Below, one piece after another: positions 14,707-18,552 of a stretch of DNA of 24,000 nucleotides. Under the pieces are notes generated by a model. That model worked only from the letters and a program-made list of their open reading frames with translations, did not search any database and had not been told where the DNA came from. This DNA comes from Rhodocista pekingensis. GTDB taxonomy: Bacteria > Pseudomonadota > Alphaproteobacteria > Azospirillales > Azospirillaceae. The first letter of the stretch is position 1. Each line of letters begins with the position of its first letter. A program made the position numbers and the translations under genes. The DNA lies in assembly GCF_042665545.1 (NCBI RefSeq), contig NZ_JBHTCM010000010.1, positions 323,672 to 347,671 on the forward strand. The letters are read 5' to 3'.

Positions 14707-15252
14707 TCAGCCTCCCCCCGGAGGCGGTGGGGGCGGAGGCGGAGGAGGAGGTGCCGGCGGTGGCGCCGGAGGTGGCGGCGGTGGCGGTGCGGGCGGCGGC
14801 GCCGGAGGTGGTGGCGGTGGCGGTGGCGGTGGCGGAGGCGGCGGAGTCGGCTGCGGGGTGGTGGGATTCAGGATCACGTTGTAGATCCGCTGCAACTGGT
14901 CGGCGGTCATCGCCAGGTTGCCCTGGTTCTGCTGCACCGCCTGCAACGCCTTCTCCGGATTCGTCTCGGCCAGCACGTTCATCGCCTTGGTGGCGATGGC
15001 GTTGTTGATCGTCAGCATCGTCTGCTGCTGCGCGACGATGTTCTGCATCGCCATGCCCAGGGCCTGGGCGAGGACGGTGTAGAGGGCCGAGGTCGCCTCC
15101 GCCGGCGCCGGCCCCAGCACCATGGCGTTCAGGGGGCTGAGCGGCGCGCCGTCCAGCGTGGTCTGTGTCTGGGCCTGGGCCTGGGGCTGCGGAGCCGGGG
15201 CGGCACCATAGCCGTAACCGTAGCCGGGAGGGTTCAAGGGTCCGTTTGCCAT
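14707..15252 (-). CDS. RebB-family (R-body) paralogue with low-complexity N-terminus and a 49-residue polyproline C-terminal tail
   Basis: The core LNAMVLGPAPAEATSALYTVLAQALGMAMQNIVAQQQTMLTINNAIATKAMNVL aligns with the upstream paralogues (APA..A..LY.V.AQ..G..MQN.VA.QQ). The N-terminus is GYGYGYG / PQPQAQAQ. The tail is P14-A-P3-A-P7-A-P3-A-P11-GGG-stop. AAGGAG lies 10 nt upstream of the ATG. Confidence 0.8.
   Translation of the reverse strand: MANGPLNPPGYGYGYGAAPAPQPQAQAQTQTTLDGAPLSPLNAMVLGPAPAEATSALYTVLAQALGMAMQNIVAQQQTMLTINNAIATKAMNVLAETNPEKALQAVQQNQGNLAMTADQLQRIYNVILNPTTPQPTPPPPPPPPPPPPPPAPPPAPPPPPPPAPPPAPPPPPPPPPPPGGG
14719..14865 (-). repeat. polyproline-coding tract (CCN runs; GGTGGC/GGCGGT hexamer microsatellite on the plus strand)
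   Basis: The plus strand reads cggaggcggtgggggcggaggcggaggaggagg ... ggtggtggcggtggcggtggcggtggcggaggcggcgg. In-frame short repeats encode 38 Pro in runs of up to 14. Confidence 0.9.
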
Positions 15253-15277
15253 GGCGGTCAGGCTCCTTCGTCCGGGG

Positions 15278-15604
15278 TCACGGCTTCAGCGACCGCAGCA
15301 GCGCGCGCAGGCCGTCCGTCGCCGCCGCCGTCTGGTTGCCGGAGAAGACCTCGTTGGTGCCCCTTACGCCCGCGGCAAGATCGCTGCCGAAGATCATGCC
15401 GATGGCATCCACCGTGACGCCGAGGCCGATGGTGGAACCGTTCTTCTGGTAGGCGACCGCGTTCTGCATACCCAGCCCCAGCGACTGGGACAGGGTCAGG
15501 TAGTTGGTCGCCAGTGCGTGCGCAGGCGCTATGCCGGTATTGACGACGTTGGCCTGCGCGACCGCGTCGGTGATCTGTCCATTCAGTGCCGTGGTGTCGG
15601 CCAT
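15278..15604 (-). CDS. RebB-family (R-body 'killing trait') protein, 108 aa
   Basis: MADTTALNGQITDAVAQANVVNTGIAPAHALATNYLTLSQSLGLGMQNAVAYQ... The NGQITDAV.QANV opening and the APA.A / GL.MQNAV core match my memory of the RebB family signature (..NSQITD.VTQ.NVKV.G.APA.A....Y). AAGGAG lies 7 nt upstream. Confidence 0.75.
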   Translation of the reverse strand: MADTTALNGQITDAVAQANVVNTGIAPAHALATNYLTLSQSLGLGMQNAVAYQKNGSTIGLGVTVDAIGMIFGSDLAAGVRGTNEVFSGNQTAAATDGLRALLRSLKP

Positions 15605-15644
15605 CGCCAGTCTCCTTCAGATGGATGGCGGAACGCGCCGCCGG

Positions 15645-15971
15645 TCAGCCCTTCTTCATGGCGGCGACAGCCGTCAGCGCGGCGATGAGCTCGGCCAGGC
15701 CGTTACCGCTGAAGACTTCGGTGGTGCCGCGGGCACCCGCCGCGACCGGCGTGCTGTAGAGCAGGCTGGTGCCCTGGGTGGTGACGGCGGTGTCGATCAT
15801 CGCCATGGAGCGCTGGCGCGCGACGGCGTTCTGCATCGACAGTCCGATGGACTGGGCCATCACCTGATAGAGGGTCGCCATGGCCTGCGCCGGAGCGGCG
15901 GCCAGAATGGTGACGTTCGCCTGGCTTACGGCATCGGTGATCTGTCCGTTGACGAGGGTTGGGTATGCCAT
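15645..15971 (-). CDS. RebB-family protein, 108 aa
   Basis: MAYPTLVNGQITDAVSQANVTILAAAPAQAMATLYQVMAQSIGLSMQNAVARQRSMAMIDTAVTTQGTSLLYSTPVAAGARGTTEVFSGN... It is a close paralogue of the next two genes. The SD is weak and a 152-bp structured spacer precedes it. Confidence 0.75.
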   Translation of the reverse strand: MAYPTLVNGQITDAVSQANVTILAAAPAQAMATLYQVMAQSIGLSMQNAVARQRSMAMIDTAVTTQGTSLLYSTPVAAGARGTTEVFSGNGLAELIAALTAVAAMKKG

Positions 15972-16123
15972 TATCGTTCACGCCCTGTGTGATGGTTGGC
16001 TTCAGGCCGGCCGACGGCAGTGCAAGTGCCGACGGCCGGCCTTTTCGTGTCCGGACCCGGTCAGCGGATGCCGACCCGGTCCGCGATCAGCCCAGGGACG
16101 GGCGCCCGGCGGGCGCCGACCGA

Positions 16124-16962: not shown

Positions 16963-16994
16963 TCTCAACTCCCTGGAGGTTCAACGCGACCGAC

Positions 16995-17342
16995 TTACCG
17001 CCCCGGAACCTGATCGGTGCGGGTGAGCGACTGGACCATCGAGCGGAGATCGCGGATCGCCGAGACGAGCTCCTGCTGCACCAGCATCGCGTTGACGGCC
17101 CGGGTGTCCGCGGCGGTCGGGATGCTGGCGATCAGGGCCACGCATTGGGAGGTGAGAGCCGTGCCGATCGCATTCATGTGCTGCTGATTGGCGACAGCAT
17201 TCTGCATGGAGAGTGCGAGGGACTGCGCCATCGCCTGGTAGAGTGCCCCCGTCGCGTGCGCAGGTGCTGCCCCTAGGACCTGCACCTGTGCCTGGGTGAC
17301 CGCATCCGTGACCAGACCGTTGGCGAGCGTCGTATCCGCCAT
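16995..17342 (-). CDS. RebB-family protein with a divergent C-terminal half, 115 aa
   Basis: MADTTLANGLVTDAVTQAQVQVLGAAPAHATGALYQAMAQSLALSMQNAVANQQHMNAIGTALTSQ... The C-terminus (RAVNAMLVQQELVSAIRDLRSMVQSL) differs from the other paralogues. Confidence 0.75.
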   Translation of the reverse strand: MADTTLANGLVTDAVTQAQVQVLGAAPAHATGALYQAMAQSLALSMQNAVANQQHMNAIGTALTSQCVALIASIPTAADTRAVNAMLVQQELVSAIRDLRSMVQSLTRTDQVPGR

Positions 17343-17565
17343 GCTTCTTCCGTTCCCTTTGCGTGTCCGCGACCGATCGGGATCGGGTCGCTACGCATCC
17401 GGGAAGACGCGGGCGGAGGGGGTTTGTGAAACGCGGACGTGCGGATGCGGCGCCGGCGGACGGACCGCGGGCGTCGCAGGAGAGACCGGAAAGGATCGGA
17501 CCGATGCCGGACCGCGGGATTCCGGCCGGGGTCACCCCCGGCCGGCTCCCGCTGCGGCCCCCGGG

Positions 17566-18135
17566 CTACTTGCCCAGGGTCGCCAGAAAGGCCTTCAGCG
17601 CGGCTGCGATGGCGATGGCGATCGTCTCGATCGACTGCCCGGCGTTGGACGCGCTGAGCGAAGCCGTCTCGACCGTTCCGACCAGGGCGCTGCCGTTGCC
17701 GAGCGCGGTCGAGACCTGGCTCGTGGCATTGCCCTGGGCGGTCGCCACCTGGCTGGCCGCCGTTCCCTGGGCCGCGGCGACCTGACTGGCGCCGTTGCCC
17801 TGGGCCGCGGTCACCTGGGAGACGCTCTCGCCGACGGCCGAGGAGACCGAGGCGAGCGCCTCGCTGTTGGCGGTGGCGACGGAGTTGATGCCGTTGCCGA
17901 GCGCCGTGGTGAGGCTGGTGACCGCGTTGGTGTTGGCCAGCATCTGGCTGTTGTAGGCCTCCGTCGTCACCAGCGCCGCCTTCTGCGCCAGATTGTTGTT
18001 GTAGGCGGCGTTGAGCATGGCGATGCCGGAGGAGGTCGCGGCGAACTGGTAGACCAGTCCGGACGCGAAGGCTGGAACGTCGGCCAGGTTCTTCAGGTTC
18101 GCCTGGGCGACTGACGTCGTGATGTCGTCAGGCAT
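17566..18135 (-). CDS. divergent RebB-like N-domain fused to 11-residue tandem repeats and a hydrophobic C-terminus, 189 aa
   Basis: The N-terminus DDITTSVAQANLKNLADVPAFASGLVYQFAATSSGIAMLNAAYNNNLAQ parallels ITDAV.QANVK.LG.APA.A...YQ...Q..GL.M.NA. Repeats follow: SQVTAAQGNGA / SQVAAAQGTAA / SQVATAQGNAT / SQVSTALGNGS. The C-terminus is IETIAIAIAAALKAFLATLGK. GGGAGGG lies 6 nt upstream. Confidence 0.7.
   Translation of the reverse strand: MPDDITTSVAQANLKNLADVPAFASGLVYQFAATSSGIAMLNAAYNNNLAQKAALVTTEAYNSQMLANTNAVTSLTTALGNGINSVATANSEALASVSSAVGESVSQVTAAQGNGASQVAAAQGTAASQVATAQGNATSQVSTALGNGSALVGTVETASLSASNAGQSIETIAIAIAAALKAFLATLGK
17689..17820 (-). repeat. four tandem 33-bp repeats encoding the 11-residue SQVxxAQGxxx units
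   Basis: The plus strand shows successive 33-nt units sharing gccctgggc.g..g..acctg(g/a)ct (17689-17820). More degenerate units appear to continue upstream in the protein (ALGNGINSVATANSEALASVSSAVGESV). Confidence 0.8.
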
Positions 18136-18156
18136 GGTCGGCCCTCCCTCGCCGCC

Positions 18157-18552
18157 TCAACCCTGAAGATCGAAGTCGAACTCGACCTTGCCGTTGATCG
18201 GCCTGGAGAAGCGGGCGAGGAAGGCGTTCAGCATCTCGCCGGCGGACGGGCCGGAGCCGCCGCCCCGCTGCTGTCCCGGCTTGCCATCCATGATCATGGT
18301 CACCGCCCGGTCGACCGTGGGCGAACCCATGATGTGGTCGATGGCGCGTGCCGTGACCGCGCTCTGCGCCGTCCAGCTCTGCTGCTGCTGGTTCACCGAG
18401 TTCAGCAGCGCCTGTGACAGCCCCATGCTGTTGGTCAGCATAAGCGTCCCGAGGGCATAAGCCTGGGTGTCGGCCATACCGAAGGATGCCGAAGGGAAGG
18501 TGCTGTTGCTGATGTAGATCGGGCTGGTATCGAATGGGCCGGAGTTGTCCAT
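18157..18552 (-). CDS. distant RebB-like protein with N- and C-terminal extensions, 131 aa; first gene of the array
   Basis: The core ADTQAYALGTLMLTNSMGLSQALLNSVNQQQQSWTAQSAVTARAIDHIMG follows the same A.A...L......GLS....N.V..QQ......AVT pattern. A Gly-rich linker (QQRGGGSGPSAG) and a short C-terminal domain follow. GC3 is host-like and the SD is weak (AGGGAA). Confidence 0.6.
   Translation of the reverse strand: MDNSGPFDTSPIYISNSTFPSASFGMADTQAYALGTLMLTNSMGLSQALLNSVNQQQQSWTAQSAVTARAIDHIMGSPTVDRAVTMIMDGKPGQQRGGGSGPSAGEMLNAFLARFSRPINGKVEFDFDLQG

Follow-up and report, generated by a model that had tools for sequence, protein, structure and literature searches.

An array of eight RebB-family genes on the folA-thyA island of Rhodocista pekingensis, a probable R-body locus whose counterpart in R. 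centenum is induced in encystment

The stretch of DNA considered here, termed the window, comprises 24,000 nucleotides (nt) of Rhodocista pekingensis (contig NZ_JBHTCM010000010.1, positions 323,672 to 347,671), within which a tandem array of eight genes related to those for the subunits of R-bodies (refractile bodies) lies between positions 14707 and 18552. An earlier note, made from the sequence alone, had described eight co-oriented minus-strand genes whose products are devoid of signal peptides, and both points hold: the eight open reading frames (ORFs) are present at those coordinates, and a reading of the protein sequences revealed no hydrophobic signal-like N-terminus in any of them. The genes, numbered here from reb1 (14707, the last) up to reb8 (18157, the first gene of the array), encode proteins of 107-189 amino acids (aa) and follow one another on the same strand with intergenic gaps of 21-223 nt. 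In order of transcription they are as follows.

18157..18552, minus strand: reb8, divergent RebB-family protein, 131 aa; PF11747 30.7 bits, E=3.4e-7; first gene of the array
17566..18135, minus strand: reb7, 189 aa; N-terminal Reb half followed by a repeat tail; PF11747 30.3 bits
16995..17342, minus strand: reb6, canonical RebB, 115 aa; PF11747 88.7 bits
16609..16962, minus strand: reb5, canonical RebB, 117 aa; PF11747 93.2 bits
16124..16447, minus strand: reb4, the most canonical RebB, 107 aa; PF11747 101.9 bits
15645..15971, minus strand: reb3, canonical RebB, 108 aa; PF11747 92.0 bits
15278..15604, minus strand: reb2, canonical RebB, 108 aa; PF11747 77.8 bits
14707..15252, minus strand: reb1, RebB core with an N-terminal extension and a poly-Pro tail, 181 aa; PF11747 45.8 bits

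The window has a GC content of 70% and contains many spurious ORFs; the eight reb frames display the high GC at third codon positions (GC3) that is typical of real genes, and each begins with an ATG preceded by a ribosome-binding site of the GGAG/AGGA type. For reb5, the ATG at 16962 is the most likely start, rather than the TTG at 16968, and the same 117-aa protein is annotated in both Rhodocista species. The assignment of all eight proteins to the RebB family, for which the earlier note had proposed a Pfam comparison as a check, is borne out by that comparison: every protein exceeds the gathering cut-off of PF11747 (RebB; 24 bits), with scores of 30.3-101.9 bits, the canonical reb2-reb6 reaching 77.8-101.9 bits and the divergent reb1, reb7, and reb8 reaching 45.8, 30.3, and 30.7 bits, such that reb7 and reb8 lie nearest to the cut-off. 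NCBIfam holds no model for the eight proteins, and a PDB search with one canonical Reb, which considered sequence matches only, returned no relative. The five canonical proteins share 42-80% mutual identity (alignment and pairwise BLAST), and their alignment agrees with the five-paralogue consensus that had been drawn up before. Against an hhalign profile built from these five in-window proteins, values of 97.7% for reb1, 92.4% for reb7, and 31% for reb8 (E=5e-4) were obtained.

Diagnostic motifs of primary Reb proteins, along with "secondary" Reb groups that include Pro-rich-tailed members, have already been classified (PMC13430693), and the array can be read against that scheme. As judged from the alignment, all four primary motifs (QITD, KxxxD/E, NAV, and QQ(Q)) are present in reb4 and reb5; reb3 is without KxxxD and QQ, reb2 is without KxxxD and has QK, and reb6 has VTD and is without the K. 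The divergent reb1, reb7, and reb8 hold subsets only of these motifs, as in the secondary groups (PMC13430693). The former statement that these three proteins keep only the central core does not hold for the 17566 protein (reb7), which preserves the N-terminal signature DITTSVAQANLKNLADVPA (Pfam positions 1-55) and has instead lost its C-terminal half. The tail of reb7 consists of tandem 33-nt (11-aa) repeats at 17680-17818 that are identical in R. pekingensis and R. centenum; long reb7-like genes occupy the equivalent position in related loci, and the repeat tail is restricted to Rhodocista. The reb1 protein carries a Gly/Tyr/Pro/Gln-rich N-terminal extension and a poly-Pro tail of about 45 residues whose length varies among strains, and thereby resembles the "S2" Pro-rich-tail group (PMC13430693). 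The weakest family member is reb8, which is nonetheless named "RebB family R body protein" by NCBI; by tblastn, no reb8 orthologue was found in modules of the Sneathiella, Eilatimonas, Oceanibacterium, Skermanella, and Acetobacteraceae types, except for a weak Skermanella match. Coding tandem repeats occur at four places in this region, namely 13511-13799 (collagen-like), 14719-14851 (reb1 poly-Pro), 17680-17818 (reb7), and 19864-20021 (sigma factor, Ala/Pro), and three of them (those of the collagen-like region, of reb1, and of the sigma factor) vary in length from strain to strain.

The same 12 genes lie between folA and thyA, orthologous and collinear, in the sister species Rhodospirillum centenum SW (RC1_1990-RC1_2001, the RC1 numbers having been given to genes by their order along the SW locus). 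R. centenum SW (CP000613) and several assemblies nearly identical to it encode the exact reb4 protein; the EndoU-like domain of a gene described below, reb8, reb6, and reb2 are 100% identical to R. pekingensis proteins, and the name given by NCBI in the two species is "RebB family R body protein". The lineage suggested by the earlier note was thus well chosen, as exact proteins occur in R. pekingensis and R. centenum, the latter being an organism in which R-bodies have been seen microscopically (Favinger 1989, cited in PMC3583457). These R-bodies were tied to six Reb copies by Raymann (2013; PMC3583457), whereas a "seven R-body gene" operon, RC1_1993-RC1_1999, was reported in BMC Genomics (2015) to be up to 50-fold upregulated in cyst development (PMC4340629). 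The count of six corresponds to the SW genes with a precomputed Pfam match, two 189-aa SW proteins being without one, and the count of seven to the annotated reb1-reb7, RC1_2000 (reb8) having been left "hypothetical"; the published numbers differ, therefore, because one describes the Pfam-detectable set and the other the annotated set, and their union is eight.

The earlier note had set the eight paralogues against about three homologous subunits in Caedibacter and spoken of a large, elaborated locus; on wider comparison the number is not exceptional. A survey scan that took one genome per species gave 78 further reb loci, onto which, for counts of gene order and companions, all window proteins were mapped (neighbourhood counts were made over 84 loci), and most of the 78 have 6-10 paralogues; nine reb genes are also known from Marinomonas (PMC3583457). 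The survey maximum, 14 paralogues in two sub-arrays within 10 kb, was observed in Methylobacter tundripaludum (L060, 2.5-12.1 kb). Taken as a whole, the eight genes very probably encode the structural proteins of the Rhodocista R-body; their orthologues in R. centenum SW are RC1_1993-RC1_2000, and they are situated on a 7.3-kb island. The locus is already published and annotated, and the identification is correct but not new; what is gained is a reconciliation of the published gene counts to eight and the recognition of the most strongly induced island gene, RC1_2000 (reb8), as a divergent Reb.

The remainder of the island and its flanks are composed of the following features.

12771..20078, no strand: reb island, 7.3 kb between folA and thyA
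12180-12770, minus strand: folA (Pfam DHFR_1), island flank
12941..13861, minus strand: collagen-like/EndoU-like gene, 306 aa, without a signal peptide; Collagen 47.9 bits, EndoU_bacteria 39.5 bits
14161..14427, minus strand: 88-aa helix-turn-helix (HTH) protein, HTH_Tnp_1 58.4 bits; similar to OrfA of IS3-family insertion sequences, with a leucine-zipper-like tail
18553..19106, no strand: spacer between reb8 and the sigma gene, of lower GC; both ends conserved relative to R. centenum, middle hypervariable
19107..20051, plus strand: sigma-70 factor of the extracytoplasmic function (ECF) type, divergent from the array; Sigma70_r2 and r4_2, TIGR02937 66.7 bits
20079-21047, minus strand: thyA (Pfam Thymidylat_synt), island flank

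Expression of the orthologous genes is documented in the cyst study of R. centenum (Supplementary file 2 of PMC4340629), from which the following log2 changes, recorded over four time points, were taken.

RC1_1990, collagen-like/EndoU-like gene: 4.0 / 4.2 / 3.8 / 2.5 (about 16-fold)
RC1_1992, 88-aa HTH protein: 3.8 / 4.0 / 3.3 / 1.5 (about 14-fold)
RC1_1993-1999, reb1-reb7: 3.7 to 5.7 at the first three time points
RC1_2000, reb8: 5.1 / 6.7 / 6.2 / 4.7, the island maximum (about 100-fold)
RC1_2001, ECF sigma factor: 3.2 / 3.0 / 2.2 (about 9-fold)

The flanking folA and thyA hardly change in these data, and the whole island (RC1_1990-RC1_2001) is one co-induced unit in encystment, with inductions of 9- to 100-fold. 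RC1_2000, a "hypothetical protein" in the cyst paper, was outside its R-body gene count despite having the highest induction (PMC4340629).

Homologues of the divergently transcribed sigma factor adjoin reb arrays in 59 of the 84 loci, an adjacency that, compared at the level of the sigma-70 family, extends both the association with HP2.3 described by Raymann and that with FecI2 of Pseudomonas aeruginosa PA14; the "Group 2" loci of Raymann contain the sigma-associated HP2.3 together with HP2.4 (PMC3583457). The C-terminal tail of the Rhodocista factor is Ala/Pro-rich and of low complexity, and no homologue of this tail was found outside Rhodocista in the surveyed loci. Domain searches between folA and thyA detected no cyclic-nucleotide-binding regulator of the Crp/Fnr type (RcgA/RebR/HP2.4), the place of such a regulator being taken by the 88-aa HTH protein. 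In the spacer between the sigma gene and reb8, the reb-proximal 200 bp or so and the sigma-proximal 120 bp or so (18985-19106) are conserved with R. centenum, identity being 65% at 18801-19000 and 97.5% at 19001-19200, and the middle, at 65-83%, falls below the genomic background.

Three GC-rich stem-loops are found in the gaps of the array.

17514..17552, minus strand: stem-loop after reb7, GC-rich, in the 223-nt gap; the fold of 17416-17565 has -84.6 kcal/mol and z=-3.15
16479..16509, minus strand: stem-loop after reb5, in the 161-nt reb5-reb4 gap; the fold of 16459-16608 has z=-2.66
16004..16042, minus strand: stem-loop after reb4, a 16-bp near-perfect inverted repeat in the 152-nt reb4-reb3 gap; z=-3.99

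The inverted repeat between reb4 and reb3 is without a U-tract and is 100% conserved in R. centenum. In the cyst data, induction values step down after reb8/reb7 and again after reb4; these steps are compatible with stem-loops that set subunit ratios and are not proof of it.

From these elements a mechanism can be proposed. The ECF sigma factor, itself induced, would direct RNA polymerase to a promoter within the conserved 200 bp or so upstream of reb8; as a precedent, the activity of PrebP1 in P. aeruginosa PA14 depends on FecI2 and RcgA (PMC8322103). The array would then yield a single polycistronic transcript or a few such transcripts, segments of which, and hence the subunit ratios, may be modulated by the stem-loops after reb7, reb5, and reb4. 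The canonical subunits are expected to co-polymerise in the cytoplasm into a coiled ribbon, and reb8, reb7, and reb1 may supply minor constituents or factors of the assembly pathway, the analogy being with Caedibacter, in which RebD is present as a minor component and assembly is kept on pathway by RebC/RebD (bioRxiv 10.64898/2026.05.21.725848). As put forward in the earlier note, the decorated subunits could also tune the geometry of the ribbon or carry cargo. The small HTH protein could serve as a module-specific regulator. Lastly, the ribbon probably extends on acidification in the phagosome of a predator, which would protect the cysts, an extrapolation from Caedibacter that the authors of the transcriptome had already put forward (PMC4340629).

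Several observations weigh against the identification of the array as the R-body locus, or against parts of the mechanism built upon it. In both Rhodocista species the link to R-bodies is one of co-occurrence and not of experiment. The roles suggested for the divergent paralogues and for the HTH protein are drawn by analogy only, and reb8, outside the Pfam hidden Markov model (HMM), is only weakly Reb-like (the hhalign value of 31%). No anti-sigma gene is present, and no recognisable or shared promoter motif of the ECF type was found upstream of reb8: a scan with the sigma-70 consensus gave no match there, a dyad search (5-mer, N14-19, 4-mer) of the sigma-reb spacers of 31 loci gave AT-rich noise or motifs confined to Rhodocista, and its repetition on 12 genus-level representatives likewise yielded no shared motif. 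The stem-loops, moreover, lie in a tract that is 100% identical between the two species and so offers no covariation.

It could accordingly be asked whether the RebB-family proteins build a polymer other than an R-body (e.g., a cyst-specific cytoplasmic or envelope polymer), or whether the array is mostly redundant with only one or two genes that matter. Such a reading draws on the fact that no published genetic link between the array and the R-bodies of R. centenum was found (PMC3583457, PMC4340629) and on the dispensability of some paralogues in Caedibacter and Azorhizobium, where not every one is required. It is nevertheless highly improbable, given that R-bodies have been observed in R. 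centenum and that the array contains the sole RebB-family genes within the 20-kb SW locus, there being generally one reb locus per genome (Raymann et al., PMC3583457). All eight reb genes are, furthermore, strongly co-induced, the canonical ones are extremely conserved between the species, and three other bacteria cannot form R-bodies without reb genes.

The conservation of the array is unevenly distributed, a pattern that is of interest in itself. Nucleotide identity to R. centenum SW is 95-96% in the background, whereas a tract of about 2 kb (about 15,200-17,200, from reb2 to most of reb6, gaps and stem-loops included) is 99.5% identical; reb4 and reb5 together show no synonymous change in 226 codons, compared with synonymous differences in 8-10% of the codons of housekeeping neighbours. 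At the protein level, identity to R. centenum is 100% for reb3, reb4, reb5, reb7, and the HTH protein, 86% for reb8, and 85% for the EndoU-like domain. Divergence above the background adjoins the tract, in the middle of the sigma-reb8 spacer (65% identity), in the reb7-reb6 gap (84%), in reb8, and in the EndoU-like domain, and the collagen, poly-Pro, and sigma tails of the two species are of different length. The simplest reading of the low-divergence tract is that the canonical block was recently recombined or transferred between the lineages, with constraint at the nucleotide level as the alternative.

With regard to the site occupied by these genes, thyA lies directly beside folA in L085 and L086, the two nearest relatives that have long contigs, where the genes are 72 and 14 bp apart, and the order tfoX-sspB-thyA-folA-EpmC-like-CBS-metC is common to these and to Rhodocista. 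In Nitrospirillum (L087/L088), the thyA-folA site holds a different, unrelated insert of about 4 kb that includes a gene of the beta-lactamase family. Given the empty site in the former and the other insert in the latter, 12771-20078 is best described as an inserted island at a recurrent insertion site, which fits the horizontal mobility of reb loci reported earlier (PMC3583457, PMC13430693). A search of the window against Rfam gave the tmRNA as its sole match, with none inside the island: a two-piece (permuted) alphaproteobacterial tmRNA (RF01849, 252 bits) lies at 21099-21456 on the plus strand, between thyA and sspB. As a target for the island the tmRNA was rejected, the gene being near the island border and not at it.

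The 88-aa HTH protein, for which the public annotation is "transposase", deserves separate consideration. Pfam HTH_Tnp_1 and related transposase HTH models match it, and hundreds of plasmid-borne IS3 OrfA genes resemble its N-terminal half, so that the gene might be thought a decayed OrfA of an IS3-family element that came to lie beside the array by chance and has no role. The neighbourhood counts point elsewhere. Of the 84 loci, 37 contain a full-length orthologue (87-102 aa, 29-59% identity, one with an internal stop) on the reb strand, at a distance of 1.2-2.7 kb downstream from the reference reb gene; these loci come from Rhodocista, an Acetobacteraceae metagenome-assembled genome (MAG), Eilatimonas, Skermanella, Oceanibacterium, and many Sneathiella (L007-L042, at about 11.2-12.9 kb); an intact ORF thus keeps a fixed position and strand in 37 reb loci of at least five genera. 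No OrfB/DDE gene follows the HTH gene here or in the 36 other loci, and the OrfAs from plasmids match HTH residues 1-54 only, 0 of the 609 plasmid matches covering at least 80%. Relative to R. centenum, the gene has 10 synonymous and 0 non-synonymous differences, which indicates purifying selection, and it is co-induced with the array. In Sneathiella, the gene next to the HTH gene bears the hallmarks of a RecQ helicase, as read from the sequence and with no Pfam run. Its fixed position, the missing OrfB, the partial OrfA matches, and the purifying selection led to the rejection of the insertion-sequence remnant, to which we would assign little probability. The gene is instead probably the conserved last gene of a type of reb module and encodes a domesticated regulator. 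The protein goes unmentioned in the published accounts of reb loci consulted here (PMC3583457, PMC13430693, and PMC8322103 among them), and the other known reb regulators differ in type, namely RebR and RcgA of the Crp-Fnr type and PraR of the XRE type. The word-indexed protein search was insensitive, giving 4 matches for this protein and 2 for the EndoU-like domain.

At the folA end of the island, the 306-aa protein named "EndoU domain-containing protein" by NCBI comprises a collagen tract of about 33 GXY triplets that is N-terminal to an EndoU-like domain. The latter matches EndoU_bacteria (PF14436, gathering cut-off 25.3 bits) with E=8.9e-10 over profile positions 4-97 of 129. No N-terminal secretion or trafficking module was seen, the N-terminus being the collagen-like repeat without a signal peptide, and the 170 bp from the stop codon to folA contain no credible ORF, so that no downstream immunity gene is present. 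By tblastn, no homologue of the full gene was detected in other reb loci; in Eilatimonas milleporae, however, a second EndoU_bacteria-like gene (26.0 bits) lies directly after the HTH gene (L008:12105-12761, plus strand), and its domain matches that of Rhodocista with a BLASTP E value of 0.002 and shares the GVY, S-[VI]-FFPD, and AY motifs. An HMM built from both domains found no further member in the surveyed reb loci, a search of solved structures with the EndoU-like domain gave no relative by sequence, and an AlphaFold2 (AF2) model of the domain from a 3-sequence alignment was unusable, at a predicted local distance difference test (pLDDT) value of 39.7. Upstream of the gene, the spacer at 13862-14160 has lower GC and contains a sigma-70-like promoter match at 14073-14044 (minus strand), which overlaps a 44-aa ORF that is RC1_1991 by gene order and is also induced; the spacer may be the 5' leader of the collagen-like/EndoU-like gene or may hold the gene's own promoter.

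An extended interpretation is that the island constitutes a complete weapon, in which the collagen-like/EndoU-like protein would be a ribonuclease (RNase) payload produced along with the R-body in the cytoplasm of encysting cells and released, or carried into a predator, on ribbon extension. The RNase-like gene is an attractive payload candidate because it is physically linked and co-induced and because the reb cluster of PA14 promotes cleavage of host rRNA: it lies inside the island on the same strand, its orthologue is co-induced about 16-fold, its product, like the Reb proteins, is without a signal peptide, and its EndoU_bacteria match exceeds the cut-off. The second, very divergent EndoU_bacteria-like gene directly after the HTH gene in Eilatimonas adds to the case, as does the R-body cluster of PA14, which promotes the cutting of host rRNA by Ribocin, an RNase for which R-bodies have been discussed as a delivery route (PMC8322103, PMC13189344); the toxin of Caedibacter, moreover, is still unknown (PMC13430693). 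Set against these points are the occurrence of such a gene within 10 kb in only 2 of about 80 reb loci and the borderline Eilatimonas score (26.0 bits against a cut-off of 25.3 bits), as well as the partial profile match (4-97 of 129) with the catalytic His/His/Lys unconfirmed, the poor AF2 model and the want of a solved-structure relative by sequence, and the lack of an evident immunity gene. The sigma-70-like promoter match just upstream implies that the gene may be a separate unit, and collagen-like proteins also coat resting cells, so the product could be a cyst-coat protein apart from R-bodies. In Bacillus, BclA is a collagen-like surface component of resting cells. On balance, the weapon interpretation is considered unlikely, although less so than the alternatives discussed above for the array and the HTH gene.

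A wider proposition shares that doubtful standing: that these would be the first R-body genes linked physically and transcriptionally to a candidate toxin, a cytoplasmic, trimer-forming collagen-EndoU RNase that encysting cells would produce alongside the ribbon and that would be delivered on extension, with the HTH protein, a domesticated relative of IS3 OrfA, as the regulator of the module. Were it true, the Eilatimonas gene in the equivalent slot would mark a recurring design, and the 70-year-old question of the toxin associated with R-bodies could be approached in Rhodocista as a tractable, free-living model. Even as a tentative proposal, it provides a concrete and cheaply testable lead to an R-body payload, R. 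centenum being described in the literature as genetically amenable. Beyond the R-body assignment itself, the modest interest that remains attaches to the conserved OrfA-like companion gene, to the RNase-like gene on the island, and to the tract of low divergence.

Comparison with known systems places the Rhodocista island among several variations on a common theme. As in Rhodocista, tandem genes of Caedibacter taeniospiralis type 51 encode small RebB-family proteins of the cytoplasm, some of these homologues being major and others minor components; the R-bodies of Caedibacter are known to extend reversibly in response to pH, with membrane rupture or killing (bioRxiv 10.64898/2026.05.21.725848). 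There, however, three homologous genes (rebA, rebB, and rebD) and the unrelated RebC are plasmid-borne in an obligate endosymbiont, whereas the eight paralogues of Rhodocista are chromosomal, belong to a free-living phototroph, and are accompanied by an ECF sigma factor and an HTH protein, with no RebC. The earlier note had likewise recognised no RebC-like factor, in keeping with a scan of the array gaps for small ORFs, by which no conserved non-Reb ORF was seen, and with the finding that RebC occurs nowhere outside Caedibacter (Raymann et al., PMC3583457), no direct comparison with the RebC sequence having been made. The ORFs in the gaps were rejected as RebC candidates, having no ribosome-binding site, having an odd composition, or being broken in R. 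centenum.

The cluster of P. aeruginosa PA14 (rebP1, rebP2, rebD, rapA, rcgA, and fecI2) resembles that of Rhodocista in that its reb genes lie beside a dedicated sigma-70-family factor, which experiments in PA14 have shown to be needed for transcription of reb. A second likeness may lie in a functional connection with an RNase that acts on the host; Ribocin falls within the RNase A superfamily, carries a signal peptide, and has its gene at another place in the PA14 genome (PA14_21120) (PMC13189344), and the predicted EndoU-like gene of Rhodocista is physically linked to the array. The Rhodocista island differs in being without an RcgA of the Crp/Fnr type, and no RapA-like gene was recognised in it, no direct comparison with the RapA sequence having been made. 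In Azorhizobium caulinodans, an operon of four reb genes and rebR, with the repressor PraR, shares with Rhodocista a tight conditional control and an operon-encoded regulator. The regulators themselves are a Crp-Fnr activator and an XRE-type repressor in Azorhizobium and, as predicted from their domains, an ECF sigma factor and an IS3-OrfA-like HTH protein in Rhodocista, and the triggers are symbiosis, temperature, or 2-oxoglutarate in the former and encystment in the latter.

The closest parallels are offered by unpublished modules (L007-L042) of Sneathiella, Eilatimonas, Oceanibacterium, Skermanella, and an Acetobacteraceae MAG, which are located at other chromosomal sites, e.g., beside the gene with RecQ hallmarks in Sneathiella. 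Rhodocista is set apart from these modules by the repeats at the end of reb7 and by its collagen domain, and Skermanella has its sigma factor and reb7-like gene on the downstream side of the HTH gene instead. Most of the modules nevertheless comprise a divergent sigma factor, a short divergent reb, a long reb7-like gene, some five canonical rebs, and, at the end, the gene for the 88-aa HTH protein, and this conserved module grammar across alphaproteobacterial genera shows that the supposed "transposase" is a conserved companion of the reb genes.

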